DNA of 64,000 nt. Source: an uncultured bacterium. GTDB taxonomy: Bacteria > Patescibacteriota > Patescibacteriia > UBA9570 > XYC2-FULL-38-9. Position 1 is the first letter of the stretch. Every line of letters begins with the position of its first letter. Below, piece after piece: positions 2,676 through 62,410 of the stretch. The notes beneath the pieces are model-generated. The model searched no databases, was not told the DNA's origin, and worked only from the letters and a program-made list of their open reading frames with translations. The stretch lies in assembly GCA_937996685.1 (NCBI GenBank), contig CALKUP010000002.1, positions 177,066 to 241,065 of the forward strand, read 5' to 3'. A program made the position numbers and the translations under genes.

Positions 2676-4982
2676 ATGTCCCAATTTTACAAATACCCAC
2701 TCCCACGAAACTTTGACTATTTACAATCGTTTACTGATCGAGACTATCAGCTATCAACAGACTTTTTAGAAAATGATATTTTATCTTTGACATTGAACTA
2801 CACAGACAAGCGTTTGCCGAACCATTCGATTTTTAAAAATTCAGTATCTTCTCAAGCGGTGAAACAAGAGGGTGATGTAGTAGTCTATAAAAACGGAAAT
2901 ACAGAATATCGCATTACACAACATCCAGTCATGCTGACAGTTGTGCAAGACGGAAAAGAGGTGCTGCAGTCTCGCGATGTCTTTGTTGGATTGAACGGTG
3001 AGCATACTATTTTTCAATTCAAGAAAGAGAGCAATGAACAACCATTTTGGGGCTTTGGGAGTAAAACTGGAGTACTGAATCAAAAAAATCGGGCGATGAA
3101 AATGTGGAACAACGATGTTCTTGGTGAGCATCCACATTCTTGGACACGTGATGATTATGATCCAACATATGCGTCAGTGAATTTTTTCATTACATATTCC
3201 AATGGAACGTACATTGGTTTATTTCTTGATAACTCAGATGAAACATTTTACAACACCGGGAAGAGTACGCATCTAGTTCCAAACGAAGTGCCTCAAGAAA
3301 CAACAGATGAATGGCAACCGCGATTTTATTGTGGTGCATACGCCGGTGAGTCAACGTTATATGTGATGACTGGTAATACGCTTGGAGAGGTTGTGCAAAA
3401 GTACGCGAAGCTCACGGGCGTTCATGAGTTGCCGCCTGTCTGGGCACTTGGTAAGCATCAGTGTAAGTTTTCGTATCTTGATGAACAAGCAATTCGTGAT
3501 GTGATTGAAGGGTATGAAAAAAATGAGCTACCACTTGATTGTGTTTGGTTCGACATTGATTACATGGAAAAGTTTAAGGTCTTTACATGGAACAACACGA
3601 CCTTTTCAGATCCAGCTCAATTAATTAAATGGATTCATGACAAAGGAGTGAATGCTGTGACAATTATTGATCCGGGTGTACGAGAAGAAGAAGGGTATGA
3701 TGTGTATGAGTCTGGTGTTTCAAAAAATGTGTTTACAAAAACACATAACGGTCAACGCTATATCGCGCAAGTATGGCCGGGAGATACGGTGATGCCAGAT
3801 TTTTCTCTAGAAGAAACAAAGGAATGGTGGAGTGATCACGTTAAACAATTTATTGATACCTACAAAATAGATGGTGCGTGGCTTGATATGAATGACCCAT
3901 CGACTGGTCCGTCAGAGCGGAATGACATGCTATTTCAAAATGGCACAGTGCCGCATCATTCGTACCATAATATCTATGGAGATATGATGAGCATCGCGAC
4001 AAAGCGAGGCTTGGAAAAAGCAGACGCAGAGAAGCGCTCATTTATTTTAACTCGATCAGGTTCTGCTGGAATTCAACAGCACGCAGCCGTCTGGACTGGA
4101 GACAACTTTAGTTCATGGGAGCATTTACAAATGTCAATTCCACAGTCTGTAAACTTGTCATTATCTGGCGTGTCTTTCAATGGCCCAGATGTTGGCGGCT
4201 TTATGGGAGAGACAAATGAACAGTTGTTAACACGTTGGTATCAAGCTGGTTTCCTGTTTCCGTTTTTCCGTAACCACAATACAAAGACTGGCCATGGTGG
4301 CGGCGCGCATCAAGAGCCGTATGCGTTTTCAAAAGATACATTGGATGCGGTTCGTTCAATGATCAATACACGGTATAAATTTTTGCCATACTTGTACACT
4401 GTTTTTCATGAGCATTATACAATCGGCAGTTCTGTCATGCGTCCGTTATTTTATGAATTTAATAACCCGGAGTATTTTAGTGTGAGTGACCAATTTATGA
4501 CTGGTCCAGCGATTATGCAAGCGCCAATTCTCACAGAAGAGAACAAGCGTTCAGTATTGTTGCCAGAAGGAAAGTGGTATGAATGGTTTGGAAAAGAGTG
4601 GCTTGATGGAGGAAAAGCAGTTGATGTTGAATTACCACTCGAGCAAACAACGCTCTATTTGCGTGATGGATACGTTATCCCTGTGTTAGCAGGTGAGGTG
4701 TTTCATGAAAAAGAATCACGAGATTTTGCAAACGTTGAATTCATTGCGCTCTTGAATGATGTCGCAGAGGTGTCATATACATACTACGAAGATGATGGCG
4801 CGACGCAGCAATATAAAAACGGGGCGTACAACACGATTGAAATCACAGTTAAACAAGATGGTGCGCTCTCAGCTCGCGGAACACAGCATGGATATCCAAA
4901 CGGAATTCAAGAAGTGCGCGTGCATGTTATTACTGCAACTGGAGTGCAAGAGGTCTCTTGCCCAGTTTCATACGATATGTGA
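2676..4982 (+). CDS. glycoside hydrolase family 31 alpha-glucosidase
   Basis: GH31 motifs WFDIDYM and catalytic-nucleophile region GAWLDMNDPS; 768 aa. Confidence 0.75.
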   Translation: MSQFYKYPLPRNFDYLQSFTDRDYQLSTDFLENDILSLTLNYTDKRLPNHSIFKNSVSSQAVKQEGDVVVYKNGNTEYRITQHPVMLTVVQDGKEVLQSRDVFVGLNGEHTIFQFKKESNEQPFWGFGSKTGVLNQKNRAMKMWNNDVLGEHPHSWTRDDYDPTYASVNFFITYSNGTYIGLFLDNSDETFYNTGKSTHLVPNEVPQETTDEWQPRFYCGAYAGESTLYVMTGNTLGEVVQKYAKLTGVHELPPVWALGKHQCKFSYLDEQAIRDVIEGYEKNELPLDCVWFDIDYMEKFKVFTWNNTTFSDPAQLIKWIHDKGVNAVTIIDPGVREEEGYDVYESGVSKNVFTKTHNGQRYIAQVWPGDTVMPDFSLEETKEWWSDHVKQFIDTYKIDGAWLDMNDPSTGPSERNDMLFQNGTVPHHSYHNIYGDMMSIATKRGLEKADAEKRSFILTRSGSAGIQQHAAVWTGDNFSSWEHLQMSIPQSVNLSLSGVSFNGPDVGGFMGETNEQLLTRWYQAGFLFPFFRNHNTKTGHGGGAHQEPYAFSKDTLDAVRSMINTRYKFLPYLYTVFHEHYTIGSSVMRPLFYEFNNPEYFSVSDQFMTGPAIMQAPILTEENKRSVLLPEGKWYEWFGKEWLDGGKAVDVELPLEQTTLYLRDGYVIPVLAGEVFHEKESRDFANVEFIALLNDVAEVSYTYYEDDGATQQYKNGAYNTIEITVKQDGALSARGTQHGYPNGIQEVRVHVITATGVQEVSCPVSYDM

Positions 4983-4994
4983 TAATTTGATTCT

Positions 4995-6353
4995 ATGAAT
5001 CAATCACAACCCGGACAACACGAGTTTGTTCTCAATCAAGCAATAAAAGAGCGATTTGATGACATGCGTTTTCGGTGGTTTTCACACCAGGAAATTCGTG
5101 ATATCGCAAATCGATTATCAACAGCAATTCAAATCGGTATTGACCGACAAGGCATCCCGACGCGGGCTGATGGCGGTGTATTGGCAATTCCGTCTCACGT
5201 TACTGCGATTTCACAGTCACAGATTGCGCAGCTTCCGGAAGATGCTGTTGCGATTACTGCAGCATGCGGCGGAACAAATTGGATCTTCACCTTGGCGCGA
5301 AAGCAGGCTGACGGAACAGTGATTCTTGAAGAGGCAAGTTCTGATGAGATGCCAGAAGGCGAGCGGACACACACCTTTGATTCGTTGATGGATTTAATCG
5401 CCGGGAATGTCGCGCGAGTTGCGAAACAATACGGAGTTGAAGCGCATCCACATCTTGCGATTGGTATTTCTTTTGGTTTTCCGCAAACAAATCTCAAGCA
5501 AGAGAATGGCGATATTGATTGTCGTATCACGATGTCTCATTTGCCGAAAAAATGGATTGTGACAGATTGTGATGATTCAGTGCCTGCTGAACAACAACCA
5601 TCATTGTCTGACTTATTGCGCACGAAACTCACCGCACTCGGGATCACATCTCCTGGTGCCATTACCATCATCAACGATACAGTTGCGGTTAGTCTTGATG
5701 TACAACATGTAGACGATCTACCTGTTGGGTTTGTCTTTGGAACAGGAACAAATGCGGCGTTATTTGTTGATAGCACGAAAGGCATTTTAAATTTAGAGTC
5801 TGGACACATGCCGATGGAGCCCGACGCTGTGTGGGAGGAAATGAAACGGCGCGGGTATATCACAGAAGAGCGTCCGGTAATGGAGCATTGGATGGGCGGT
5901 GGAAATTTGCCATACCGCATCGCAGCGGCTCTGTATTTAGTTGAAGATATGGTTCCAAATGCTGCTCGATTTGCTGAGATGTTTATCAATACAGAAAATC
6001 AAGCGTTGATATCTCATTTAGCAAGTAGTGATTTTTCTGATTTGCAATTTGCTGGTGTAACCCCAGAAGAAGAGGATGTGTTGCGCAGTGTGTGTCGTCG
6101 TGTTCTCACTCAAGCTGGCCAAGTGATTGGTATTATGTCTGCCGTAGTTGCGGAGCACGCAGGGTACAAGCAAGGATCCGCGCATTTCCCGTTTGAAGGA
6201 TCGTTGATGAAGAAGGGATATAATGTACAACGAACCGCGCTTGATACAGCAGAGCTTCTTATTCCAGGTCATCAGTTGCAACCATATGTTGCAACTGGCA
6301 TGATTGGTGTCGCGAAACTTGCTATGGTGCAGACCGCGGAGTACTATACGTAA
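4995..6353 (+). CDS. hexokinase-family sugar kinase (eukaryote-type hexokinase fold)
   Basis: Hexokinase signature blocks: AACGGTNW (phosphate-1), IGISFGFP (LGFTFSFP), INDTVAV (NDTVGT), GTGTNAAL (GTGTNACY). Confidence 0.65.
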   Translation: MNQSQPGQHEFVLNQAIKERFDDMRFRWFSHQEIRDIANRLSTAIQIGIDRQGIPTRADGGVLAIPSHVTAISQSQIAQLPEDAVAITAACGGTNWIFTLARKQADGTVILEEASSDEMPEGERTHTFDSLMDLIAGNVARVAKQYGVEAHPHLAIGISFGFPQTNLKQENGDIDCRITMSHLPKKWIVTDCDDSVPAEQQPSLSDLLRTKLTALGITSPGAITIINDTVAVSLDVQHVDDLPVGFVFGTGTNAALFVDSTKGILNLESGHMPMEPDAVWEEMKRRGYITEERPVMEHWMGGGNLPYRIAAALYLVEDMVPNAARFAEMFINTENQALISHLASSDFSDLQFAGVTPEEEDVLRSVCRRVLTQAGQVIGIMSAVVAEHAGYKQGSAHFPFEGSLMKKGYNVQRTALDTAELLIPGHQLQPYVATGMIGVAKLAMVQTAEYYT

Positions 6354-17102: not shown

Positions 17103-18812
17103 ATGACAAAAAAGACGAAATTGCGTATTACCGCACTATCCATTCTGCTGCTCGCTATTGGGGCTGGTTATCTAGCGTATCCAAAGGGACCTGCAATTAG
17201 CCTTGGTTCATTTCAACGCTCCGGAAATGTTCAACTTGGCCTTGATTTACAAGGTGGGGCGCAGTTGCTCTATCAAGCTGACATGTCAAATGTTCCAGAA
17301 GCTGATCGTACTGATTCATTAAATGGTGTGCGTGATGTTATTGAACAGCGCATTAATGCATTTGGTGTCGGCGAACCTGTAATTCAAACAGTTCGCTCGG
17401 GTAATGATTATCGCTTAAATGTTGAGCTGCCGGGTATTACAGATGTGACTGCTGCGGCGAAAAAAATTGGAGAAACCCCATTACTCGAATTTAAAACAGA
17501 AGGACCAGAAGTGGTGTATACAGAAGAGCAAAAAGCTGCAATTCGTAAACAAAACGATGAAAATAAAAAAACAGCCGAAGACGTATTAAAGCGTGTTCGT
17601 TCCGGTGAGTCATTTGATGATTTAGCGAAGCAATATTCACAAGACCCGGGATCAAAGGATGCGGGTGGTGATTTAGGTGAGGCACAAGAAGGAACCTATG
17701 TTGAGCCATTTAATGAAGTTGTTTTTAGTAAAGCAACCCCAGGCGAGGTCTATCCAGAGCTGGTTGAAACAACCTTTGGATATCATATTGTTCGGGTTGA
17801 TGAGCGCACTGAAGCTGCGACAAATGAAGTAGCTCCAGGAACTGACGCAACAAACACAGCGACAACCGAAGGAAAAAAAGCCAAGGTACATCACATTTTA
17901 CTGACAAAACAGTCTGAAGAGCCGGTGAGTACTGGTCCGAATTATGTTGCGACCAACTTGACTGGCAAACAACTTGATCGAGCATCGGTAGTTCTTGATC
18001 AAACAACAGGATTGCCAACAGTCTCATTGAATTTTGATTCAGAAGGTAAAGAGTTGTTTGCAAAAATTACAAAAGAAAACGTGAACAAAACAATTGCTAT
18101 TTACCTCGATGGGCAAATTTTGTCCGCGCCAACAGTGCAGCAAGAAATCTCAACGGGGCAGGCGATTATTTCTGGTAGCTTCTCACTTGATGAAGCCAAG
18201 CAATTAACACAGCGCTTGAATGCTGGTGCGCTACCTGTGCCAGTGTCGCTGATTAGTCAGCAGCAAGTCGGGCCAACACTGGGTCAAGAATCGATTGAAC
18301 GAAGCTTATTTGCTGGGGTTGTTGGTTTAATCGCGCTCGGTATTTTTATGATCGTCTATTATCGATTGCCAGGGCTTATTGCGATGGTTGCGTTAGTGTT
18401 GTATTCCATTCTTGTGCTTGTGGTGTTTAAATTAGTTCCAGTGACTCTCACCCTTGCTGGTATTGCTGGTTTTGTCTTGTCTATCGGAATGGCGGTTGAT
18501 GCCAATGTCTTGATTTTTGAGCGCATGAAAGAAGAGTTGCATCGCGGTAAAACAGTCAAGCAAGCAATTGACGACGGATTTGATCGAGCATGGCTGTCTA
18601 TTCGTGATTCCAATGCATCTTCTTTAATGACCTGCTTGATTTTATACTGGTTCGGTTCATCGATTATTCGCGGCTTTGCGATCACTCTTGCAATTGGTGT
18701 CCTTGTCTCAATGTTTACAGCAGTGAATATTTCTCGAACTCTCTTAAAATTATTGCCAGTGAAAAATTCTTGGTGGTTTGGTGTCGCTCCTTTCAATAAC
18801 GAAAATGACTAA
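17103..18812 (+). CDS. secD: protein translocase subunit SecD with embedded parvulin-type (PpiC) PPIase domain
   Basis: SecD N-terminal TM and LDLQGG, C-terminal 6-TM block (AVDANVLIFERMKEE); internal parvulin signature SFDDLAKQYSQDPGSKDAGGDLGE...TTFGYHIVRV. Confidence 0.75.
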   Translation: MTKKTKLRITALSILLLAIGAGYLAYPKGPAISLGSFQRSGNVQLGLDLQGGAQLLYQADMSNVPEADRTDSLNGVRDVIEQRINAFGVGEPVIQTVRSGNDYRLNVELPGITDVTAAAKKIGETPLLEFKTEGPEVVYTEEQKAAIRKQNDENKKTAEDVLKRVRSGESFDDLAKQYSQDPGSKDAGGDLGEAQEGTYVEPFNEVVFSKATPGEVYPELVETTFGYHIVRVDERTEAATNEVAPGTDATNTATTEGKKAKVHHILLTKQSEEPVSTGPNYVATNLTGKQLDRASVVLDQTTGLPTVSLNFDSEGKELFAKITKENVNKTIAIYLDGQILSAPTVQQEISTGQAIISGSFSLDEAKQLTQRLNAGALPVPVSLISQQQVGPTLGQESIERSLFAGVVGLIALGIFMIVYYRLPGLIAMVALVLYSILVLVVFKLVPVTLTLAGIAGFVLSIGMAVDANVLIFERMKEELHRGKTVKQAIDDGFDRAWLSIRDSNASSLMTCLILYWFGSSIIRGFAITLAIGVLVSMFTAVNISRTLLKLLPVKNSWWFGVAPFNNEND

Positions 18813-19761
18813 TATGAACATGTACCGATTTATCGATAAAGCAAAATATATTACAACTGTTTCGTTAATTTTGGTTGTCGCGTCATTTGGTATTTGGGGA
18901 TACAACTACGCTTCTCAAGTGCGCTCTGGTGTGACAAATCAATACGGATTTTCATTAGGGATTGATTTTACTGGAGGGTCAGTCTTGGAGCTTTCTTTTC
19001 CTGAAGGTAAGCAGCCGTCTTTAGATCAAGCGACAACGGTTCTTGAGTCGCAGGGATTAAAGGGGACAACGCAGTCTGTGAACACAAACGGACTATTGGT
19101 GCGTACATCATACATCTCTCAAGATCAACACAATGCGCTGCTGCAAGGTTTTCAAGCGCAATATGGAGCGACAGAGCAGTCATTTTCAAGCGTTGGGCCA
19201 ACACTTGGTCAAGAATTACAACGAAAAGCCTTTTTAGCAACCGGACTCGTGTTGCTCGCGATTATTTTGTATGTATCATATGCGTTTCGTGGTATTTCAT
19301 ATGGCCCAGTAAAATCATGGGTGTTCGGTTTAGGTGCAATTGTGGCGTTGATACATGATATCGTCCTTGTTCTTGGGGTCTTTGTGGTTCTTGGGATGGT
19401 CTCCGGAGTGCAAATTGATTCCTTGTTTGTGACAGCACTGCTCACTGTTCTCGGCTTTTCTGTCCATGACACCATTGTTGTGTATGATCGTATTCGTGAG
19501 AATTTAAAGCAGAAAAATAAGTATACATTTGCTGAAATTATCGATAAAAGTATCAATAGCACTTTGGCGCGCTCTCTTAACACCTCATTTACAACTTTAT
19601 TTGTCTTAACAGCCTTGTATTTCTTCGGTGGAGAGACAATTCAGCATTTCGTCCTTGCATTAATCATTGGTATTATCATTGGAACCTATTCATCAATTTT
19701 TATCGCAAGCCCTGTATTGATTCTTGGTGAGCGTATTGGAAAACGCCTCCAAAATCGATAA
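18805..19761 (+). CDS. secF: protein translocase subunit SecF
   Basis: Immediately downstream of and overlapping secD; 6 TM helices with SecF motif DTIVVYDRIREN; ATG 18805 chosen (track start is TTG 18778). Confidence 0.75.
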   Translation: MTNMNMYRFIDKAKYITTVSLILVVASFGIWGYNYASQVRSGVTNQYGFSLGIDFTGGSVLELSFPEGKQPSLDQATTVLESQGLKGTTQSVNTNGLLVRTSYISQDQHNALLQGFQAQYGATEQSFSSVGPTLGQELQRKAFLATGLVLLAIILYVSYAFRGISYGPVKSWVFGLGAIVALIHDIVLVLGVFVVLGMVSGVQIDSLFVTALLTVLGFSVHDTIVVYDRIRENLKQKNKYTFAEIIDKSINSTLARSLNTSFTTLFVLTALYFFGGETIQHFVLALIIGIIIGTYSSIFIASPVLILGERIGKRLQNR

Positions 19762-19808: not shown

Positions 19809-19837
19809 TTGACATATTTTCAAATAAATGTCATTAT
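19809..19837 (+). promoter_or_regulatory. sigma70-like promoter TTGACA-N17-CATTAT
   Basis: -35 TTGACA 19809-14, 17-nt spacer, -10 CATTAT 19832-37, ~18 nt before ATG 19856. Confidence 0.45.
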
Positions 19838-19855: not shown

Positions 19856-20971
19856 ATGACACATATGAGTAACTCTATTTTAGACACAGTCTTATCGCGC
19901 AGAGACGTCGTGGAACGACAGTCTTTTGATGCCTTGCAGCTCACTGAGCAACTTTTGGCCGTATTACCTGAAAAAGAAGCAGGTATTTTGCGGCGTCGTT
20001 ATGGATTAACTGGTGAGCGAAAACAGACTCTTGAAATGATTGGAAAAGAGTACGCTGTAACACGTGAACGGATTCGTCAGATCGAGCGTCAGTCAATTGC
20101 TGCAATTAAAGATAGTAGCGTGTTTCGTGAATCCATTCGTCCGTTTGAACACGTTGTCATGGCTGTTATTCATGAACACGGTGGCATTATGACAATGGAA
20201 ATGATTAGCCGGGAATTACTTGGCGTCCATCATTCAGACGTTAAGCATCATGCAGCGCTTCATTTTCTATTGTCTGAATTATTGAAAGATAAAATTGAAC
20301 ACGTTCGTGCGAATAAGCAGTTTTCACAAAGTTGGAAAACAAAAACAGTTTCTTTGTCACTAGTGGAACGTGCTGTCGCTGAATTACAGCGTATTATTGA
20401 AGGTCTCGAAAAACCTCATAGCTTCGAGCGTATTTTTGGCGAGTTTCAGGAGACAGATTTATATAAAGAAAACACTGATCATTTTACAGAGCAGGTGTTA
20501 ACGTCGTATTTAGACGTTGCTGGCGCTGTCGGCAAAAATCCGTTTGATGAATACGGTCTTGCGCATTGGGGCTTGGTGAATCCGAAGCGTATGCATGATC
20601 GTGTCTATTTGATTTTACAAAAAGAAGGAAAGCCGTTGCATTTTGAAGAAATTAGTCAAAAGATCACAGAGATTTTTGGCAAAAAAGCGTATCCACCAAC
20701 AGTGCATAATGAGTTGATTTTGAACGATGAGTATGTCTTGGTTGGTCGTGGTTTGTATGCCTTGAAAGAATGGGGCTATCAAGAAGGAGTTGTTTCAGAT
20801 GTCATTAGCCAAGTGCTAGAAGATGCAGCAGAGTCAATGCACCGCGATGAAATTGTAGACAAGGTGTTAGAGCAGCGCATGGTAAAAAAGAACACAATTT
20901 ATTTAGCGTTAACCGACAAAGAAGTGTTTCGTAAACACGAGGACGGTCGTTACTCACACCAGGTAGCGTAA
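19856..20971 (+). CDS. sigma-70 region-4 (HTH) domain protein with uncharacterized ~280-aa C-terminal domain
   Basis: N-terminal LPEKEAGILRRRYGL..KQTLEMIGKEYAVTRERIRQIERQSIAAIKD closely matches sigma70 region 4.2; no region 2 or 3. Confidence 0.6.
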   Translation: MTHMSNSILDTVLSRRDVVERQSFDALQLTEQLLAVLPEKEAGILRRRYGLTGERKQTLEMIGKEYAVTRERIRQIERQSIAAIKDSSVFRESIRPFEHVVMAVIHEHGGIMTMEMISRELLGVHHSDVKHHAALHFLLSELLKDKIEHVRANKQFSQSWKTKTVSLSLVERAVAELQRIIEGLEKPHSFERIFGEFQETDLYKENTDHFTEQVLTSYLDVAGAVGKNPFDEYGLAHWGLVNPKRMHDRVYLILQKEGKPLHFEEISQKITEIFGKKAYPPTVHNELILNDEYVLVGRGLYALKEWGYQEGVVSDVISQVLEDAAESMHRDEIVDKVLEQRMVKKNTIYLALTDKEVFRKHEDGRYSHQVA

Positions 20972-21020
20972 ATACTATTCGTTTGTCTGATCATTTGGTA
21001 TACTATAGACAAGTGACTTG

Positions 21021-23198
21021 ATGTCTATTCTTATGTTTGCGCAAATACAAAATTTTTTTATCACGTTTGGAAAGGAGTTGCTTGCTGCTGCGGGGCAAAG
21101 TCCGTTTTCAGCACTTGGATACATCATGACACATGGTGGTCTTGTGGTCTTTTTTCCAATGCTTGTGTGGATGTTGTGGGTGACGTGGATTTTTTATGTT
21201 ATTGGCTGGTATGTAAAAAAACAAAAATACAAGTTATTTGCAGTCGATGTTCCAAGTGTGAATGAGCAGAGCATGGCAGCTGTTGAGCAAGTGATTGTTG
21301 CATTGCACGGGACATTTTTTAATTACAATAAAAAAGATCAGTATTGGCATGGTATGCTCGTTGAGCCGTACTCGTTAGAAATTGTCAGTATTGATGGATA
21401 CATTCAATACTTTGTCTGGTGTAATGCGCGTTTTGAAAATGTTTTGAAGTCGGCAATTTATGCGCAATACCCAGATGCCGAAATTACAGAGGTTGAGGAT
21501 TACACAAAGAATGTGCCGAATGAATTTCCAAGTGATGAGTATAAAATTTGGGGAACGCAATTAGTGTTTGAAAAACCAGATGTCTACCCGATTAAGACGT
21601 ATGAATATTTTGAGCATTCATTGACTGGCACTTTTGCAGACCCACTTGCGTCGATTTTGGAGCAGATGAGCCGACTTCATGAAGGAGAGCAAGTGTGGTT
21701 GCAGTTGGTCATCACCCCAACAGACGGTGGTATCCGCAGTAGTGGTATTTCAGAGGTGGATGCATTAATTGGAAAAGATTCTGGTTATAGTCCAAAAGGA
21801 TTTGAAAAATTTATTTTTTCAACACTTGGGCGTTTGTTTAACGCAGGAAAGCCAGTGCATTTTGAAGCAGTGGAGGATACTGGCTTTGGTCGAGAGGGAA
21901 GTGATGGAAACTTCATGAGTGTTACAACTGGTGAAAAGGTTGTTATTGAAGAAATTCAAAAGAAAATTACCCGCATGCAATTTTCGGTGAAATTTCGTAT
22001 TGTCTATCTTGCAAAAACTGCGTTGTATGATCGGTATCGTGTCCCTGGCGCAATTTTTGGTGCAATTAAACAGTTCAATTCACTTGATTTAAATAGTTTC
22101 AAAGGTGGAAAACTCACGACAACTTCTGGTCCGGCGTATTTGTTTTGGCAACGCCGTCGACATATTCGAGAAACAAAATTAGTACAAGCCTATCAAGGAC
22201 GCTCCAACTGGGCGGGGAGTGACGCAATTACAATGTCGAGTGCTGAAATTGCAACATTGTTTCATTTCCCTTTAGAGTCTGCGCAAGCGCCGCTGCTTTC
22301 TACAACCGAATCGAAAAAAGCCGAACCACCAACGCGGTTGCCGCAGTCTCAGGTGTCCGATTCAATTATCGCAACAGCCAGTATGCCTGGTGATAACGAC
22401 CCTGTTGTTCCAGAAAATTTACCAATGCAAACACCAACCAAAATGCGTATCCCGCAACCCGGCGAACAACTACCACGTGCTGCGAGTATTCCAGTTGGTC
22501 CAATTGAGGAAAACTTTGTTGGTACAACTGGTCAACAGCCAGGCACAATTTCATCGCAGCTCACAAATGCGGCTGGTGAAGTGCCTCTGCATTCAATGCC
22601 AGGCCTCCCGCCGGGTGTTCGTCCGATCACTGATTCAGCGTTGCCAACGCCTGTTGCAAAGCCGGTTTCTATTCCGACTCCCGCAACAGCTCCTGCGCAA
22701 CCGCAATTTCAACCGCAGCAATGGTCTCTGAATAGTCGTGCGCAAATGGAGGTTGGTGTGAATCCAAAATCAATTATGCCGACACCGGAAGAAATTACAG
22801 ATACCGTGACGCAAGTGGCGAACGTTATTCCAGCTGTCGCCAAAAAAGTGACCCCAGAGGCTGTTATGCCGATGATTCATGCGATTACAGATCCAATTCA
22901 GCAGGCAGCGCAAGCGATTCCTGGTATTGCGCGGTCGATGTCGCCACAGCAATGGGGTGCTAGTGAGTCGCAGTCACCGCAACCGCCACAGCCTCAATTG
23001 GTGCAACAACCACAATTTCAAACAGCAATGCAACCTCAGTCAGTGCAGCAGCCACCTGAAAACACAGCAAACCGTCCAATCCCAAAACCAGTGCAACATC
23101 CAGGCATGCAAGCGCCGCCAGCACCAAATAATCCACCATCCGCTCCGCAAGCAAGTAGTAGTTCAGCTGGCGCTCCGCCGCAAAATCTGCCAATATAA
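21021..23198 (+). CDS. membrane-anchored hypothetical protein with long P/Q-rich disordered C-terminal tail
   Basis: Two N-terminal TM helices, ~400-aa globular region, then ~300 aa low-complexity P/Q/A-rich; ATG 21021 (track start TTG 21018). Confidence 0.5.
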   Translation: MSILMFAQIQNFFITFGKELLAAAGQSPFSALGYIMTHGGLVVFFPMLVWMLWVTWIFYVIGWYVKKQKYKLFAVDVPSVNEQSMAAVEQVIVALHGTFFNYNKKDQYWHGMLVEPYSLEIVSIDGYIQYFVWCNARFENVLKSAIYAQYPDAEITEVEDYTKNVPNEFPSDEYKIWGTQLVFEKPDVYPIKTYEYFEHSLTGTFADPLASILEQMSRLHEGEQVWLQLVITPTDGGIRSSGISEVDALIGKDSGYSPKGFEKFIFSTLGRLFNAGKPVHFEAVEDTGFGREGSDGNFMSVTTGEKVVIEEIQKKITRMQFSVKFRIVYLAKTALYDRYRVPGAIFGAIKQFNSLDLNSFKGGKLTTTSGPAYLFWQRRRHIRETKLVQAYQGRSNWAGSDAITMSSAEIATLFHFPLESAQAPLLSTTESKKAEPPTRLPQSQVSDSIIATASMPGDNDPVVPENLPMQTPTKMRIPQPGEQLPRAASIPVGPIEENFVGTTGQQPGTISSQLTNAAGEVPLHSMPGLPPGVRPITDSALPTPVAKPVSIPTPATAPAQPQFQPQQWSLNSRAQMEVGVNPKSIMPTPEEITDTVTQVANVIPAVAKKVTPEAVMPMIHAITDPIQQAAQAIPGIARSMSPQQWGASESQSPQPPQPQLVQQPQFQTAMQPQSVQQPPENTANRPIPKPVQHPGMQAPPAPNNPPSAPQASSSSAGAPPQNLPI

Positions 23199-23218
23199 AG
23201 GAAGTGATACATTGATGT

Positions 23219-25921
23219 ATGCAAGACGAACAACAAACAAACACAAACACCAATCCACCTATTCCAGAAATGCCCTCAACGGTGAACTGGAATGAAATGC
23301 CAAATACGGTTACGTATTTTGCGCAAACAAATTTTCGTGGGGAAGCGCGTAAATTTGGAATCAAGCGTGATGATCGCCGCCGCCACATGTATGTGATCGG
23401 TAAAACTGGTATGGGGAAATCCACCATGCTTGAAAACATGATCATTCAAGATATTGAAAATGGTGAAGGGCTCGCAGTGATTGATCCGCATGGAGATCTT
23501 ATTGAAAAGGTGATTGACTTTGTTCCTGAGCATCGTATTAAAGATGTTATTTATTTTAACCCAGCCGATTTTCATTTTCCGATTGCGTTTAATATTGTCG
23601 AGCAAGTTGATGATGAATATAAAAATTTAATCGCTAATGGTTTGGTTGGTGTCTTTAAAAAGATTTGGGCAGATTCTTGGGGACCACGGTTGGAGTATAT
23701 TTTGATCAATTGTATTTTGTCTTTGTTGGATTATCCGGGCGCAACACTCCTTGATGTGAATCGTATTTTAGTTGATCCAGCGTATCGAAAAAAGGTGATC
23801 AAAAAAATCAAAGACCCGATTGTGCGGCAATTTTGGGTGAATGAATATAATAATTACAGTGAAAAATTTCGCAGTGAAGCGATTGCTCCAATTCAAAATA
23901 AGGTTGGACAATTTTTAAGTTCTTCATTGATTCGTAATATTGTTGGGCAAGAGCGATCAACCATTGATGTGCGTAAAGAAATGGACGCCGGTAAAATCAT
24001 TTTGATGAATTTATCAAAAGGTCGTATTGGTGAAGAAAATGCAGCTTTGCTTGGTGCGATGATGATTACGCGTATTCAACTTGCTGCGATGAGTCGGGTT
24101 GATATTCCAGAATCGCAACGTCGTGATTTCTTTTTGTATGTTGATGAGTTTCAAAACTTTTCAACGGAATCATTTGCGTCGATTTTATCTGAGGCACGTA
24201 AATATCGTTTAAATATCACAATGGCTCACCAATATATTGAGCAGTTGTCAGATGAGGTAAAGGCTGCGGTATTCGGAAACGTTGGAACAATGGTGTCGTT
24301 CCGCGTGGGAAGCGTTGACGCAGAAGAGTTGGAAAAAGAATTTCAACCAACCTTCATGCAAGAAGATATTGTGAAGTTGCCGTCGTTCCATGTTTATATG
24401 CGCTTGATGATTGACGGTGTGGCGAGTGATCCGTTTTCCGCAACAACGCTTGCGCCAATTTCAAACCCATCGCATTTAAAAGATGTGATTATTGAAAATT
24501 CCCGAAACACATATGCATCAGACCGCAAAGAAGTGGAATATGCAATTAATTTGTGGGCCGCGGTTGATGACGAGCAAACCCAAAAAATTAAAGCAGATAA
24601 AGAAAAAGCAGACGCGCGCGCAAGTGAGCCTGAGGTAGAAGAGGTCACGCAAGAATTAGACGAAGATGGTATTGTGCAAAAACCAAAAAATGGCATTCCA
24701 CTTCCAGCGGCAGCTGCTGCGCCAGCAACGACAGATTGGGGATTTGGTGGTTCTGTTCAAGGTGTGTCTCCGATACGGCCACTTGAAGAGGCGCCGGCTC
24801 CAGTCGCAGATGCAGAGCCAGTAATGCGATGGACTGTTGAAGAGTCGAATGAAGATGCTTCGGTTGTTGAAACAGCGCCTGTAAACGTGTTGAATGATGT
24901 CGCGCCCGCTTCTGTTGATGCTGACGATGTGTTTACGGGTGTTGACTTTTTGAGTGCGTTGCAAGGTGCGGAAGAGGTTCTTGATATGCCAACGCCTCCT
25001 CCAGTTGTTGCTCCTCAGTCATTACCTGTTGCTCAAAAACAAGAAGCGATGCCAACAGCATTTGATGATATATTGCGTGATGCATTTTCAGATGTTCCAG
25101 TTGAGCGTGAATCTCTGGCAGCAGAAAAGACTCCTGCCGCTCCTGTGAGTTCACAGCCACGGGCTGCAACCCCAAAACCACGAACAGTGACAGAGGCACC
25201 TCAAAAATCAGACGCAGCGCCAAGAGAACCGCGCTTTGTTCCAAATCATGCGGAAGACAAAGCTGACACCCGAAGACCGGATCAACGACCACAACCAGGA
25301 CAACGAGCGGGGTCTGCTTCAGGTTCGAGTTCAAGAAGTGCGCAAGGAACAGCTACTGCTCCAACGCAAGCAACTTCAGCCGGACCTGCTGGGCAAGTTG
25401 TTTCAAGTGAAGAAAAGCGTAAGCGCAAACGTAAGCGCAAGCGAAAACCAGACGACACTCGAACACCAGATCAACGACCGCCTCAGTCACAAGGTGGTGG
25501 AAGTGGGTCAGGTGCGGGAGGTTCTCGATCAACAATGCCGAGCGAGCCTCGTCAATCAAATAATACAAATACTCCCGCTGCACAAAAACCAGCTGTGCAT
25601 CAACCATTTAAAGATGCGTTTGCGAGCTTGAAAAAAGAGTTGCCTGAAGCAAACTCTGTTGCAAGTCCAGCTACTGCAGCGCCGGCGCGTGCGCAAACAC
25701 CTCGTGCAGATGACGATGGTCCAATTGGATTAGATCCTGTTGTTGTAAAAGCCGCTCCTGTTCAGCGGGTAGTCCAAACCTCTCCTGCGCAGCTACGTCC
25801 GATTCAGCCTGTAGAGCGGCCTGTGTCGCGGCCACAACAGCCGATGCAACCGCAGCCTGTGACACGACAACAGCAAGCACCGCAAACAATGCAGCCAGGT
25901 CAGCCAGTGACATTTGAATAA
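23219..25921 (+). CDS. type IV coupling protein-like P-loop ATPase (TraD/TraG/VirD4 family, TraG-D_C motif) with ~400-aa disordered tail
   Basis: Walker A VIGKTGMGKST, Walker B FFLYVDEFQNF, TraG-D_C-like ITMAHQYIEQL...GNVGTMVSFRVGS; no TM segment; C-terminal P/A/Q-rich region contains KRKRKRKRKRKRKP. Confidence 0.55.
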   Translation: MQDEQQTNTNTNPPIPEMPSTVNWNEMPNTVTYFAQTNFRGEARKFGIKRDDRRRHMYVIGKTGMGKSTMLENMIIQDIENGEGLAVIDPHGDLIEKVIDFVPEHRIKDVIYFNPADFHFPIAFNIVEQVDDEYKNLIANGLVGVFKKIWADSWGPRLEYILINCILSLLDYPGATLLDVNRILVDPAYRKKVIKKIKDPIVRQFWVNEYNNYSEKFRSEAIAPIQNKVGQFLSSSLIRNIVGQERSTIDVRKEMDAGKIILMNLSKGRIGEENAALLGAMMITRIQLAAMSRVDIPESQRRDFFLYVDEFQNFSTESFASILSEARKYRLNITMAHQYIEQLSDEVKAAVFGNVGTMVSFRVGSVDAEELEKEFQPTFMQEDIVKLPSFHVYMRLMIDGVASDPFSATTLAPISNPSHLKDVIIENSRNTYASDRKEVEYAINLWAAVDDEQTQKIKADKEKADARASEPEVEEVTQELDEDGIVQKPKNGIPLPAAAAAPATTDWGFGGSVQGVSPIRPLEEAPAPVADAEPVMRWTVEESNEDASVVETAPVNVLNDVAPASVDADDVFTGVDFLSALQGAEEVLDMPTPPPVVAPQSLPVAQKQEAMPTAFDDILRDAFSDVPVERESLAAEKTPAAPVSSQPRAATPKPRTVTEAPQKSDAAPREPRFVPNHAEDKADTRRPDQRPQPGQRAGSASGSSSRSAQGTATAPTQATSAGPAGQVVSSEEKRKRKRKRKRKPDDTRTPDQRPPQSQGGGSGSGAGGSRSTMPSEPRQSNNTNTPAAQKPAVHQPFKDAFASLKKELPEANSVASPATAAPARAQTPRADDDGPIGLDPVVVKAAPVQRVVQTSPAQLRPIQPVERPVSRPQQPMQPQPVTRQQQAPQTMQPGQPVTFE

Positions 25922-25950
25922 CAGCGAAGATCTTCGCTGTTATTTTTTTG
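25922..25950. terminator. bidirectional rho-independent terminator between convergent genes
   Basis: CAGCGAAGATCTTCGCTG hairpin followed by TTATTTTTTT. Confidence 0.55.
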
Positions 25951-26809
25951 GGGTAATAATTGCAAAGCGGTCCTCGTTTCCAAAATCTTGAATAATAGTA
26001 ACAGCGTGTTCTGGAAGAGTGTCTGCGACAGCAGCTGTGATGCGCGGTGCGTGATGTGATCCAATTTCTAACAAGAGTGAGCCATATGGCAATAACCACT
26101 GTGTGGCGCCTTGGATAATATCTGCGATAATAGCAAAGCCATCATCTTGCGCGACAAGTGCGTGTTCTGGCTCATATCGAAGTCCTACTGATTGGACTGT
26201 TGAGCCTTCTGCTTCAGTTAGTGTGAGGTATGGCGGGTTGCTGATGATTAAATCAAACTGCGCGATGCCTTCAGGAAGTGGTTCGTAGACAGATCCGTGC
26301 AACAGTTCAACGTCAACACCAATGCGTTTCATGTTTTCATACGCAACAGCCAAGCTGTCAGATGAGATGTCAGTCGCGATTACTTGTGCTTGTTTATCAA
26401 GAATTTTTGCGAGCGTGAGACCGATCGCGCCAGAGCCTGTACCAATATCTAAAATGCGGACACGCTCTGATGTGCCGTAGCGTGTGGTGATGAGTTTTTG
26501 GGCTTCATCAATGAGGCGTTCTGTTTCAGGACGGGGAACAAGGACGGCTTCGTCGACTTCAAAATCAATGCCATAAAATTCCTTATGACCGGTTAGATAT
26601 GCCATTGGTTCTCCGGCAGCACGGCGACCAATAAGATTATTGTATTGACGTTCCTGTTCAATTGAAATAATATCGCTGCCATGTGCGATAATATAGGCTC
26701 GGTTTTTTTCAAGTAAATGAGCGAGCAGAACTTCCGCATCCAAGAAGGGAAGCGTCACTGCGTCTTGCAAGGCCTCCCCGCCATGAATAATAAGTTCGTT
26801 GATTGTCAT
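25940..26809 (-). CDS. prmC: release factor glutamine N5-methyltransferase PrmC/HemK
   Basis: NPPY motif (LIISNPPYL), SAM-binding ILDIGTGSGAIG; ATG 26809 is 1 nt after the prfA stop (translationally coupled); track N-extension rejected. Confidence 0.75.
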   Translation of the reverse strand: MTINELIIHGGEALQDAVTLPFLDAEVLLAHLLEKNRAYIIAHGSDIISIEQERQYNNLIGRRAAGEPMAYLTGHKEFYGIDFEVDEAVLVPRPETERLIDEAQKLITTRYGTSERVRILDIGTGSGAIGLTLAKILDKQAQVIATDISSDSLAVAYENMKRIGVDVELLHGSVYEPLPEGIAQFDLIISNPPYLTLTEAEGSTVQSVGLRYEPEHALVAQDDGFAIIADIIQGATQWLLPYGSLLLEIGSHHAPRITAAVADTLPEHAVTIIQDFGNEDRFAIITPKK

Positions 26810-26810
26810 G

Positions 26811-27896
26811 TTAGTGTGTTGTTGGTTGGATATTTTGGAGACGTGCGATTTGGTCAGCTTCTTGGAGGGCTTCGATGATATCAGAGAGTTCGCCTTCCAT
26901 GTGCTTCGGAACGTTTGACCAGTTGTGTTTAATGCGGTGGTCAGTGATGCGGTCTTGTGGGAAATTGTACGTGCGGATTTTTTCACTACGGTCACCGGTG
27001 CCGACTTGTGAGCGACGTTCATCGCCACGTTTTTTTGCTTCCTCGTCTTCCATGTGTTGCAAGAGGCGAGAGCGCAAGACTGTTAAGGCTTTGGCTTTAT
27101 TTTTATGTTGTGATTTTTCATCCTGACAAACCACAACCATACCACTTGGAATATGAGTGATGCGAACTGCAGAGTCGGTTGTATTTACACTTTGTCCGCC
27201 GTTGCCGCCAGAGCGGAACACGTCAATGCGTAAATCATTCGGGCTAATTTCAAGGTCAGTTTCTTCAGCTTCAGGGAGAATTGCAACAGTAATTGTTGAT
27301 GTGTGAACGCGGCCTTGTTTTTCTGTTTCTGGAACGCGTTGCACACGATGCACGCCACTTTCGTATTTAAATGCAGAGTATGCGCCAATTCCTTCAATTT
27401 TAGCAATGACTTCTTTGTAACCATCAACGCCGTTTTGGCTGGTTGCGAGGAGTTCAACATTCCAATTGCGTGACTCTGCGTATTTAATGTATGAACGAAA
27501 TAGCTCAGCAGCAAACAGAGCGGATTCGTCACCGCCAGCGCCGGCTCGGATTTCCATGATGATATTTTTTTGATCGTTCGGATCTTTTGGCAGGAGTTGT
27601 CGTTGCAAGGCTTCTTCAATCTCAGTGCGTTGCGCTGTAAGACTTTTGAGTTCTTCCTTCGCGAGTTCGACAAAGTCAGGGTCAGATCCTTCATCAATTG
27701 TTGCTTGCGCTTCTGTGAGGGCGCTGCCGACAGATTCTAAACGGTGAATCAATTCAACAGTGACTTTGAGTTCGTTGTATTCAATCGACACGCGTTCAAA
27801 AGCTTTGCGATCTTGCACTAATTCACCCGATTGTAATTGGGCTTCAAGGCGAGCAAAATGTTCAAGGATTGGTCCGGTGAGTGCTGAATCGATCAT
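26811..27896 (-). CDS. prfA: peptide chain release factor 1
   Basis: GGQ motif ([24 protein letters not shown]) and RF1-type tripeptide region [15 protein letters not shown]. Confidence 0.85.
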
Positions 27897-28313: not shown

Positions 28314-28322
28314 AACCAAAAA

Positions 28323-28352
28323 ACTATACTATAGAACGATTTTTCTGTCAAA
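28323..28352 (-). promoter_or_regulatory. putative rpmE promoter TTGACA-N18-TATAGT (minus strand)
   Basis: Reverse complement of 28323-28352 reads TTGACAgaaaaatcgttctatagTATAGT. Confidence 0.4.
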
Positions 28353-28436
28353 TAAGATAAAAAGTGAGGGGTGCAGGCTCGCGAGAGAGATGTTTCACTC
28401 TTCCAAGAGCCCGCGTTTGTCTGAATGTGGTCAGAT

Positions 28437-28769
28437 CTAGCTGCGGATACGCGGCAATCCGCTATCAATCAGCCACTGATCAGGATCTGCCCCCTCCGGG
28501 CAGCTTGCAAGCGCGAGTCGCGCGGTGAGCGCGTGCGGGTCATCTGCTGGGTCGGGTCTCCAATCCGGGCCCGGAAGAACGGCCAACAGGTCTTCCGGAT
28601 GCACCTCGTCGAACGTCGTGTGGTGAGGCAGCGCCTGGCGGTGGGATCCGTCCGGGAGCAGATTCCCAGGGGTTACAACCGAACCCCCGATCCTGCGTAC
28701 TTCACGTTGTCTCTCTGCCAAAGGACACCTCCTGCCGAAAATAGTACTGATTCTTGCCAAAAAAGGCAA
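28437..28769 (-). CDS. hypothetical protein in ~65% GC island (TTG start; coding status uncertain)
   Basis: 110-aa ORF, D/P/A-rich, no ATG start or SD; island sits between divergent rpmE and rpsB promoters. Confidence 0.2.
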   Translation of the reverse strand: MPFLARISTIFGRRCPLAERQREVRRIGGSVVTPGNLLPDGSHRQALPHHTTFDEVHPEDLLAVLPGPDWRPDPADDPHALTARLALASCPEGADPDQWLIDSGLPRIRS

Positions 28770-28782
28770 GGAATGGTATAGT
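28754..28782 (+). promoter_or_regulatory. near-consensus sigma70 promoter TTGCCA-N17-TATAGT for the rpsB-tsf operon
   Basis: -35 28754-59, 17-nt spacer, -10 28777-82; implies ~115-nt 5' leader before rpsB ATG 28906. Confidence 0.5.
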
Positions 28783-28905
28783 CTGTGAGCTGTTTACAGC
28801 ATATTTTAACCCGTACGACAGATACCTGGAGTGAATTCCTGCCGCCCGATGTAAATCGTCGGCCCTCACGCCCACTGTCGGAGATAATCAATAAGGAACA
28901 TATAT

Positions 28906-47635: not shown

Positions 47636-48436
47636 TTATTGATATTCCTTAAACTCTACGCAACCTTTTGATACAAGGTTTTTTGCAACGTCGTATTTAT
47701 ATTTTTTGCCCCAATCAGCAAAGCGATCATTCAAGAGTTTGTCGCGTAGATCAGCGTTATAGGCAGCGCCAATTTCCGCAGCAAACACTGTGCCGCGCTC
47801 ACTGTCTGACAAGGTTTGTTTACTGAAACGATGAGCGACGTAGTCAATGGATGTCACAGATCGGTTTTTCACAATATCTTTATTGAATACTGTCCCGGTA
47901 TATCCAATCAGTTTTTCTTTGCGACTCTCATCACCAAAAATAGTGACAGCGTCATAGTCAATGCCTTTGTCTTTCACAATCGCATAACTGTTATCGATAT
48001 TTTGCCACGTGGTAATCGCGCATTCTTCTTTGTAGAATTTCACACCCTTTTTTTGGAGAGATGCAATATCTGCATATTCATCATAGCCACGATAGAGACT
48101 TTCGGCTTCTGAGAGGTCTTTGTTGTTTGTGTATGAGCCGGTGAAGATAACCGCGACTACATGGTTATTTGTATCGTTGACATACGCGACAGCTTTTTTG
48201 ATATAGTCTTCGTATGATTCGTTTCCAAGAACAGGTGTGCCATAGCCAGGGATAATAACAATGCGTTGTCCGTTTTTATTGAACCGTTTATCAATCTTAT
48301 GCAGTGTGGCTTTTGCTGTATTTTTAATGTCTGCTTTGGAATTCAGACTTTCCGGCAAAATGTCTTTTGCTGTGCAGCCTGAAAGAGTCGCAACAGCGGA
48401 GCAGAAAAAGAGGGCCGTAAGAATGCGGGTTTTCAT
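47636..48436 (-). CDS. DUF218 (YdcF/ElyC-like) lipoprotein
   Basis: Lipobox LSGC; RIVIIPGYGTP...VIFTGSYTN typical of DUF218. Confidence 0.4.
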   Translation of the reverse strand: MKTRILTALFFCSAVATLSGCTAKDILPESLNSKADIKNTAKATLHKIDKRFNKNGQRIVIIPGYGTPVLGNESYEDYIKKAVAYVNDTNNHVVAVIFTGSYTNNKDLSEAESLYRGYDEYADIASLQKKGVKFYKEECAITTWQNIDNSYAIVKDKGIDYDAVTIFGDESRKEKLIGYTGTVFNKDIVKNRSVTSIDYVAHRFSKQTLSDSERGTVFAAEIGAAYNADLRDKLLNDRFADWGKKYKYDVAKNLVSKGCVEFKEYQ

Positions 48437-48445
48437 ACAAGAAGA

Positions 48446-50809: not shown

Positions 50810-50849
50810 TATTTGAAGGAAAACGACAAGCCGTGTATACTGCTTTTAT

Positions 50850-51485
50850 ATGTTAGAACAACTCTTTGGGTCACGGACCCGCGTGAAACTCCTCCGCTTG
50901 TTTTTTACTCAGCCAGAAGAACGTTATTTTGTGCGTGAACTGACACGGGTGATTGATGAGCAAATTAATTCCGTTCGTCGAGAGCTCCAAAATTTAGAAA
51001 CCATCGGTTTGGTTGTTTCTGATATTGTTGAAAAGAAGAAATATTACACATTAAATCCGGAGTTCCCATTGTTGCATGAATTGCAAGCAGTGATTATGAA
51101 AACTCGCCTTGTCACAGAACAGGCATTCGTGCAGTCTATTCGTGGGCTTGGACCAATTGAATATTTTTCATTGCTTGGGCATTTTGTGCAAGATGATGAC
51201 GCGCCAATTGATTTGTTTATCATCGGGACTGTGAGCAAGACGCGTTTGCAAAAACTGCTCCAACAATTTGAAGAGTTGTTTGGGAAGCAATTGCGCTACA
51301 CCGCACTCTCAAAAGAGGAGTATGAATATCGTGAAGATGTGGCAGATCGTTTCTTGGCTGACATCTTTAATCGTCGCAAAATGGTTGTTGTTGATAAAAT
51401 TAATAGTGGGATGCCAGATAAAGCCGTTGCGACAATGAGTCGTCAATTTGAAGAAGAACAAAATCAACAAAACGAACAATTATAA
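50850..51485 (+). CDS. winged-helix transcriptional regulator-like protein
   Basis: N-terminal wHTH (SRTRVKLLRLFFTQPEERYFVRELTRVIDEQINSVRRELQNLETIGLV). Confidence 0.4.
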   Translation: MLEQLFGSRTRVKLLRLFFTQPEERYFVRELTRVIDEQINSVRRELQNLETIGLVVSDIVEKKKYYTLNPEFPLLHELQAVIMKTRLVTEQAFVQSIRGLGPIEYFSLLGHFVQDDDAPIDLFIIGTVSKTRLQKLLQQFEELFGKQLRYTALSKEEYEYREDVADRFLADIFNRRKMVVVDKINSGMPDKAVATMSRQFEEEQNQQNEQL

Positions 51486-51497
51486 ATCTTACGTACT

Positions 51498-51971: not shown

Positions 51972-51977
51972 TTTGCT

Positions 51978-53111: not shown

Positions 53112-53113
53112 CT

Positions 53114-57998: not shown

Positions 57999-58068
57999 GG
58001 AGCTAAAATAGCCACACATTAAAGGCGTTGACCCGGATTGACATTCGGTTTTTATTCGGTTATGATAA

Positions 58069-58917: not shown

Positions 58918-58950
58918 GTGTTAATTTTGAATAAGTAAAAAGATTAGATT

Positions 58951-60350: not shown

Positions 60351-60373
60351 ATAAATATAGTAAATACTGCTTT

Positions 60374-60637: not shown

Positions 60638-60648
60638 TTTAATCTTAC

Positions 60649-62409: not shown

Positions 62410-62410
62410 G

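Follow-up and report, generated by a model that had tools for sequence, protein, structure and literature searches.

Two adjacent genes on a 64-kb stretch of the Patescibacteria contig CALKUP010000002.1 (the whole of which is called the window below) probably encode the two halves of one split type IV coupling protein (T4CP), a translocation ATPase of the TrwB/VirD4 type. The upstream gene (21018..23198) encodes a membrane partner, M, a member of the Pfam family DUF8128, which is 726 amino acids long when read from a TTG codon at 21018 and 725 when read from the ATG codon at 21021; a database protein (P0121) is 100% identical to the shorter form. The downstream gene (23219..25921) encodes a 900-amino-acid ATPase, A, of the TrwB/VirD4 coupling-protein type and devoid of transmembrane segments. 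The two genes are co-directional, separated by 20 bp and, like all features of the pair given below, lie on the forward strand. Both open reading frames (ORFs) had been reported in a preliminary description of this DNA, and their coordinates and lengths were confirmed.

The motor core of A (residues ~30-450, 23306..24568) is a P-loop nucleotide-binding domain carrying the Walker A (GKTGMGKS, residues 61-68, 23399-23422) and Walker B (YVDEFQNF, residues 307-314, 24137-24160) motifs that characterise T4CPs, both of which had been recognised in the preliminary description and are unchanged in the 49 relatives aligned. A second T4CP characteristic, an all-alpha domain inserted in the nucleotide-binding domain, is predicted by the AlphaFold model of the core (predicted local distance difference test, pLDDT = 83; predicted template modelling score, pTM = 0.81), where the helices of the insert span residues ~132-256 (23612-23986). 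Among the Pfam profiles, A matched TrwB_AAD_bind (45.9 bits, cut-off 20.5, profile positions 11-310 covered), T4SS-DNA_transf (24.2 bits, cut-off 20.1) and, by a narrow pass, DUF87 (24.8, cut-off 23.2). The TraG-D_C-like segment pointed out earlier scored below its cut-off in A itself (19.1 against 22) but passes in relatives. A search of PDB sequences with the A family profile returned TrwB (E = 1.8e-8) and then DotL (E = 0.005), hhalign aligned A with TrwB of R388 over 263 columns (probability 95.9, E = 5.5e-9), and Foldseek placed TrwB chains first for the predicted model (E = 9e-12, template modelling score 0.62, ~410 columns), ahead of HerA, Cag-beta, DndH-C and DotL. Pfam, PDB search, hhalign and Foldseek agree on the TrwB/VirD4-like identity first proposed, and neither profile searches nor structure prediction led to an unrelated P-loop family such as HerA or FtsK: A belongs to the TrwB/VirD4 coupling-protein group.

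Other motor families were rejected. The Pfam FtsK_SpoIIIE profile matched only around Walker A, with 15.6 bits (E = 0.011) where its cut-off is 24. The NCBIfam HerA profile scored 13.5 against 970, HerA structures gave template modelling scores of 0.46-0.49, behind TrwB, and no nuclease partner is encoded nearby. The comparison of A with VirB4 motors yielded hhalign probabilities of 2.8 (TrwK) and 1.1 (the AAA_10 VirB4 of Bacillus), and no match to Pfam AAA_10 or CagE was found in the pair, which together indicate that the pair is not a VirB4. With TrsE of pGO1 A gave a partial match only (probability 80 over 98 columns), and a TrsK-type motor was likewise rejected by profile comparison.

No hydrophobic segment was found in A, in agreement with the preliminary description, and the N-terminal transmembrane domain that VirD4-type proteins carry in cis is thus lacking. 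An ATPase without a transmembrane domain of its own, whose anchor is encoded by the upstream gene, fits a recognised class of coupling proteins: according to a passage in PMC7431656 that cites Llosa and Alkorta, T4CPs of class (iii), 'without TMD' (transmembrane domain), can pair with a separate membrane protein. The core of A has at least 8,000 database relatives, and the best 120 are 61-85% identical to it, which is unusually high for a T4CP; where their sources are named, all are Patescibacteria, including Kerfeldbacteria, Veblenbacteria and Parcubacteria. Identity to the 48 Patescibacteria relatives aligned ranges from 61 to 84%, and the closest named relatives of the genome carrying the pair are Kerfeldbacteria.

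M was assigned to DUF8128 (PF26449) from a precomputed Pfam hit on the identical protein P0121 and on most of the 120 homologues listed. The family comprises 3,475 cluster representatives at 50% identity, and no paper mentioning DUF8128 or PF26449 was found in the literature searched. A Kyte-Doolittle scan of M revealed one strongly hydrophobic stretch, the membrane anchor (residues ~32-66, 21111..21215), immediately followed by a basic patch, KKQKYK (21216-21233), and a single comparable stretch occurs in each of the 15 DUF8128-family N-termini inspected. This bears out the earlier idea that the upstream gene provides the membrane anchor for an ATPase that has none. The two transmembrane helices then attributed to M survive in part: its model does begin with two helices (2-27 and 29-68), but M and its relatives have one strongly hydrophobic stretch only, and the first helix is not hydrophobic in relatives. 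The cytoplasmic alpha/beta domain that follows (residues ~70-425, 21225..22292), initially described as an uncharacterised domain of ~400 amino acids, could be narrowed down by structure comparison. In a Foldseek search with the predicted model of M (residues 1-441, pLDDT = 87, pTM = 0.81), the top six matches were all TrwK/VirB4 chains. The domain is therefore predicted to have a fold like that of the VirB4 N-terminal domain, and M would share with VirB4 this one defining feature of the latter.

The two modules are also found in a single polypeptide. In plasmid searches by tblastn with M and with A, both queries matched the same gene on ~25-30-kb Bacillus plasmids, as in NZ_CP086062.1 (locus L088, 429-3143), whose 904-amino-acid product is annotated as a 'DUF87 domain-containing protein'. 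Residues 52-298 of this fused protein align with residues 113-427 of M (probability 97.8, E = 8.7e-13), and residues 318-719 with residues 26-413 of A (probability 99.9, E = 4e-35). The fused protein has no transmembrane segment and ends in an acidic tail of ~185 amino acids closed by a basic patch. A search seeded with its N-domain recovered only 6 proteins; close relatives of this N-terminal part carry DUF8128 according to precomputed Pfam results, one of them together with DUF87. A subgroup of the coupling proteins of monoderms seems to carry a DUF8128 module at the N-terminus, which had not been remarked on before. The genes next to the fused one encode a Replic_Relax (relaxase-like) protein, a TcpC (VirB8-like) protein, a VirB4 of the AAA_10 type, a hydrolase of the cell wall and a large 'conjugal transfer protein'; this neighbourhood includes VirB4-, VirB8- and VirB1-like genes. 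The plasmid homologue is thus linked to both a relaxase and a VirB4-containing type IV secretion system (T4SS), as is typical of T4CPs, and its Replic_Relax, TcpC, VirB4 and hydrolase neighbours indicate that, in a conjugation module of Gram-positive type, it takes the place of the coupling protein.

A second fused form, of 750 amino acids, is encoded in a Kerfeldbacteria genome (GCA_016182555.1, locus L002, 10184-12436), immediately 3' of the split pair. The N-terminal part of this paralogue is DUF8128-like, its ATPase shares 46% identity with A, and it aligns with both profiles. Neither a second copy of the pair nor a fused paralogue was found in the window. Overall, relatives of A were found on 327 plasmids, all of these matches being below 60% identity. 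As side observations on the Bacillus plasmids, MOB-suite types those with the fused gene (module NZ_CP086062.1 429-13096) as 'non-mobilizable' despite their Replic_Relax, TcpC and VirB4 genes, so this conjugation module appears to escape current typing; and the annotation of CP025942.1 divides the fused gene into two ORFs (4825-5340 and 2705-4795), for which a frameshift may be responsible.

The association between M and A is conserved well beyond the genome studied here. We fetched 80 species-representative loci with the M profile, from lineages including Kerfeld-, Uhr-, Magasanik-, Falkow- and Buchananbacteria and Paceibacter, of which 78 were testable downstream and 70 upstream of M. An A homologue lies directly 3' of M on the same strand in 70 of the 78 (~90%), answering positively the question of a syntenic duo raised at the outset; other genes, such as glycosyltransferases, occupy this place in the remaining ~10%. 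Upstream of the pair, the window carries secD, with an inserted parvulin peptidyl-prolyl isomerase, and secF (17103..19761, forward strand, Pfam), followed by a gene for a 371-amino-acid protein with sigma-70 region 4 and HARE-HTH domains (19856..20971, forward strand; Pfam Sigma70_r4 3e-12, HARE-HTH 2e-7). The same order, secD-secF-sigma/HARE-DUF8128-ATPase, appears in the gene tables of three relative loci (L001, L002 and L004). The sigma/HARE gene is directly 5' of M in 40 of the 70 loci testable upstream, 19 of which have secD-secF before it, and secF lies within 3 kb 5' of M in 45, being the immediate neighbour in 26. There are also 21 loci where sigma/HARE directly precedes M and no secF is found within 3 kb, although 7 of these hold less than ~3 kb of upstream sequence. 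The GC content of the M-A region is similar to that of its flanks. Inheritance together with secDF and sigma/HARE, and a motor 61-85% identical across lineages, point to a domesticated coupling protein and not to a mobile-element remnant. M-A is, in our reading, a split coupling protein domesticated on the chromosome, whose anchor bears a VirB4-N-domain-like module.

Both proteins end in long low-complexity tails, as the preliminary description had noted, and their lengths and composition confirm this. The tail of M (residues ~443-726, 22344..23195), which counts ~284-300 amino acids, is made of 19% P, 12% Q and 11% A, and that of A (residues 451-900, 24569..25918), of ~450 amino acids, of 14% A, 14% P and 8% Q. 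Order-promoting residues account for 16-18% of the M and A tails versus 35% of the cores. Within the tail of M, an alignment with three homologues (P0122-P0124) shows conserved islands, namely TESKKAEPPTRLP, PTKMRIP, LHSMPGLPPGV, IHAITDPIQQ and a terminal PPxNLP, the first of which reads TESKKxEPPxxLP in the consensus of the relatives. The terminal motif is PPQNLPI in M (23175..23195). PPxNLP[ILF] occurs within the last 8 residues in 111 of 120 M homologues, and its P and L are nearly invariant in the family alignment. Tails in the M family have a median of 65-92 amino acids and a minimum of 19, the shortest consisting of little besides PPxNLP. The junction between the two modules of the fused Bacillus protein reads ...TPLPKEMKNAEFDPNLTIPLG..., and for this reason the PPxNLP peptide may be an old inter-domain linker.

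The tail of A was aligned with those of its six closest relatives (P0001-P0006), which have ATPase cores 83-85% identical and similarly long tails. The islands common to them are KNGIPLP (24686-24706 in the window), DFLSAL (within VDFLSAL, 24941-24961), a KR tract (25415..25447), VHQPFKxAFA (VHQPFKDAFA, 25595-25624), PVGL (GPIGLD in A, 25718-25735) and a terminal PGQxVxF (PGQPVTFE, 25895..25918), separated by spacers that vary and contain indels. In A the basic tract (residues 733-743) reads KRKRKRKRKRK, hence (KR)5K and not the (KR)6 first counted; five of the six relatives have KRKRKRKRKKR and the sixth QRKRKRKRKKR. In the wider family, 79 of 121 A homologues have PG[QE]x[VI]x[FL] among their last 25 residues, and 42 of 121 have a run of at least six K/R residues. 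A treble-clef zinc finger (PF23477) is present in the tails of 55 of the 120 best relatives listed, and relatives with shorter tails carry this finger in place of the KR tract: among the 24 homologues with tails of at least 300 amino acids, 22 have a K/R run without the finger, one has the finger without a run and one has neither. The median tail length in the A family is ~190-207 amino acids, which places the window lineage at the long end, as it does for M; two Uhrbacteria-like loci reach ~530.

These tails are genuine. Tandem Repeats Finder detected only the KR tract as a DNA tandem repeat within them, and since islands and KR tract are kept in six close relatives, repeat or assembly artefacts were rejected as their origin. 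Nor do the tails of M and A expand together, which could have hinted at interaction between them: their lengths show no correlation (Spearman -0.03 over 67 genomes). A surface-extended location, suggested earlier, is not what the topology indicates: by the positive-inside rule, the KKQKYK patch after the transmembrane segment of M with no further such segment behind it, together with the lack of signal peptide and transmembrane segment in A, implies that the tails of both proteins should be cytoplasmic.

The combination of features seen in the pair has partial parallels in several known systems. Like TrwB of R388 and VirD4, A has a P-loop domain with a predicted inserted all-alpha domain, TrwB being its best match by profile and by fold, and like TraD and DotL it has a variable C-terminal extension. 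It differs from TrwB and VirD4 in lacking an N-terminal transmembrane domain, with the anchor encoded by a separate gene, in its chromosomal location with housekeeping-level conservation and away from any relaxase or T4SS gene, and in its ~450-amino-acid tail with a (KR)n tract. In pIP501, according to a passage of PMC7431656, the soluble coupling ATPase TraJ may assemble into a VirD4-type complex with TraI, a membrane protein that has its own gene. The likeness to A and M is one of arrangement; M differs in having a ~350-amino-acid domain predicted to resemble the VirB4 N-terminal domain, and TraJ and TraI lie within a conjugation operon. The fused Bacillus protein shares with M-A both modules in the same order, profile-level homology and a long low-complexity C-terminal tail, but it is a single polypeptide without transmembrane segment, is plasmid-borne beside relaxase, TcpC, VirB4 and hydrolase genes, and has an acidic, not a P/Q-rich, tail. 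VirB4 (TrwK) resembles M in the predicted fold of its N-terminal domain, and in pGO1 a small VirB4-N-terminal-like gene, trsD, lies directly 5' of the ATPase gene trsE, the same N-domain-then-motor layout as in M-A; unlike in VirB4, however, the motor of A is TrwB-like, and M has no sequence-level similarity to TrwK, TrsD or TrsE. EccE of the mycobacterial ESX (type VII) machinery gave a much weaker score, shows no sequence similarity and belongs to a different secretion system. No earlier description of M, of its fold, of the fusion or of the tail-motif architecture was found in the literature searched.

What is known of T4CPs and T4SSs in this phylum bears directly on the role of the pair. 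Quinonero-Coronel et al. (2025) counted 5,713 VirD4-type T4CP homologues, a set that may not correspond to the family of A, in 2,918 of 3,035 Patescibacteria genomes (96%); only 148 of the 5,713 lie near virB4, and VirB4-type T4SS genes are usually far from T4CP genes (PMC12102498). Exaptation of these proteins, according to the authors, 'cannot be ruled out' (PMC12102498). Wang et al. (2023) described an essential T4SS in Southlakia that has no recognisable coupling protein or relaxase (PMC10633639), and in the one species tested by transposon sequencing the Patescibacteria T4SS is essential for epibiotic growth (PMC10633639).

Several observations weigh against the pair being a T4CP-like translocation ATPase. 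The ~50 window ORFs scanned encode sugar metabolism and cell-wall enzymes, SecDF, PrfA/PrmC, ribosomal proteins, a Pif1 helicase, a P-type ATPase, threonyl-tRNA synthetase and a few phage-like proteins, and include no relaxase, VirB4 or pilin, as the preliminary description had already remarked, nor any integrase or FtsK. Ten window ORFs without Pfam match were rescanned with NCBIfam, giving no match for 8 and weak matches unrelated to T4SSs for 2. The usual linkage of a T4CP to a relaxase and/or a VirB4-containing T4SS is therefore missing for A within the 64-kb window, and the connection of M-A with a T4SS is one that we infer. The M profile gave no sequence signal with TrwK, TrsD, TrsE or the Bacillus AAA_10 VirB4, so that its likeness to the VirB4 N-terminal domain is a matter of fold comparison with a predicted model. 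By a charge-hydropathy proxy, the tail of M falls on the 'folded' side. Finally, T4CP homologues are present in 96% of Patescibacteria genomes and VirB4 in fewer (2,417, or 80%), and the T4CP homologue of Southlakia, which may not be of A's family, is reported as non-essential whereas the T4SS is essential (PMC12102498); these last two points speak for a job separate from the T4SS.

Such a job is at the centre of one alternative scenario, in which a T4CP was captured early in Patescibacteria, split into a VirB4-N-like anchor and a motor, and is now an autonomous, near-universal and T4SS-independent nucleic-acid machine at the membrane, with the tails as multivalent scaffolds. We consider this rather unlikely; if true, the machine might serve in exchanges with the host cell or in handling the nucleoid of these minimal cells.

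The main rival reading takes the pair as an autonomous housekeeping nucleic-acid motor at the membrane, no longer serving a T4SS and engaged for example in segregation or clearance at division, in the manner of FtsK and SftA, or in DNA uptake, which appears unlikely on balance. The very high conservation of A (61-85% identity to its best 120 relatives, all Patescibacteria where named), its single copy in the window, its housekeeping neighbourhood and the basic tract or zinc finger of its tail all speak for this, and the linker of FtsK is long and P/Q-rich as well. The excess of T4CP homologues over VirB4 in the phylum and their rare linkage to it (PMC12102498) point in the same direction. However, the FtsK_SpoIIIE match of A stays under its cut-off (E = 0.011), no gamma-domain-like DNA-recognition module was seen in A, and with a single transmembrane anchor per M subunit no channel is evident. 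Moreover, ftsK is mentioned in passages of transcriptome papers on Saccharibacterium TM7x, so that, as far as those passages go, a replacement for FtsK is not obviously needed.

The gene order upstream of M raises the further idea of a protein-export accessory linked to Sec, where M-A would act with SecDF for particular secreted or membrane proteins. Some T4CPs, such as VirD4 and DotL, do recruit protein substrates, and secD-secF lies within 3 kb 5' of M in 45 of 70 loci, with secF as the immediate neighbour in 26. We nevertheless find this improbable, given that nothing but gene order favours it, that in 21 loci sigma/HARE directly precedes M with no secF within 3 kb (7 of them with less than ~3 kb of upstream sequence), that the fused homologue sits beside a relaxase in a DNA-transfer module, and that the elements in the tail of A resemble nucleic-acid binders. 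It is very improbable that the pair is what remains of an integrated conjugative element, or that it serves anti-phage defence as a HerA/DUF87-type ATPase. The relatives of A on 327 plasmids and the weak PADLOC matches to mad8 (2.5e-11) and HerA (7e-9) might point there, the latter at the level of the ATPase. Against this, synteny with housekeeping genes is kept across many lineages, the neighbourhood was found to contain neither an integrase or relaxase nor a nuclease or another defence partner, the GC content resembles that of the flanks, and all plasmid matches are below 60% identity versus 61-85% in Patescibacteria relatives.

The split coupling protein thus appears as the best explanation, and from the homology, predicted folds, linkage, fusion and motif conservation described above we infer how tethering, docking and a role at a translocon might be organised. 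M would tether a presumably hexameric ring of A to the cytoplasmic face of the membrane, an arrangement that would be comparable to the in-cis transmembrane domain of TrwB or to TraI/TraJ of pIP501. The C-terminal PPxNLP of M, as the presumed former inter-domain linker, probably holds M and A together. The long tails would be lineage-specific expansions of flexible cytoplasmic linkers that display short conserved motifs. They probably dock substrate, most likely nucleic acid, or adaptors, as the tails of TraD and DotL do, in the case of A through the (KR)n tract or the zinc finger. The most likely job of the pair would then be to recruit DNA or protein and energise its passage at a membrane translocon, for which the prime candidate would be the Patescibacterial T4SS, a system that is not linked to the pair and whose own cluster lacks a coupling protein.

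Patescibacteria represent a large share of bacterial diversity, and T4CP-like genes are near-universal among them yet unlinked and unexplained (PMC12102498). The present data indicate that one such ATPase comes with a dedicated and conserved membrane subunit, predicted to have a VirB4-N-domain-like fold, and that both occur joined in one polypeptide within a genuine conjugation module of Gram-positive type. The putative interaction pair, the tail-motif peptides and the Walker residues offer concrete handles on what the motor binds and whether a T4SS is served.

Around the pair, the closest match in the region to a sigma-70-like promoter (TTGACA-17-CATTAT, 19809-19837) is located just 5' of the sigma/HARE gene, and no convincing terminator was found between the sigma/HARE, M and A genes, which is weak evidence; the sigma/HARE gene may be co-transcribed with the pair. 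Its product could be a transcription factor, an RNA polymerase accessory protein or a DNA adaptor of the motor. In SecD (17103-18812), the parvulin-type peptidyl-prolyl isomerase (Rotamase/Rotamase_3, residues ~145-235) is inserted in the periplasmic P1 region, an architecture also present in the relative loci L001, L002 and L004.

Elsewhere in the window, positions 1-2000 have a GC content of 0.56 compared with ~0.44 in the rest, and contain an alpha-amylase-like ORF (795-2555) and overlapping ORFs on both strands. The 585-bp gap between rpmE (reverse strand) and rpsB (forward strand) at 28320-28905 shows long overlapping ORF-like stretches on both strands and no Rfam family, even at E <= 1; it may correspond to an undescribed structured RNA or leader. 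Six consecutive ORFs at 47636-53878 (266, 787, 211, 157, 377 and 254 amino acids) have no Pfam match, NCBIfam giving only a weak NHL-repeat-like match for the 787-amino-acid product and a weak ArsR-type helix-turn-helix match (E = 0.004) for that of 211. A low-GC segment at 58000-63727 (0.33 at 58-60 kb) encodes a Bro-N protein (58069-58917), a KAP-family nucleoside triphosphatase (59027-59938) and, adjoining thrS, a Baseplate_J-like ORF (62411-63727), and could represent the remains of a phage or a defence islet. Finally, the prmC ORF, which has a GTG start, overlaps prfA by ~218 nucleotides (25940-27028 / 26811-27896); the PrmC_N domain begins only at residue 78, hence the true start of prmC is probably further downstream.

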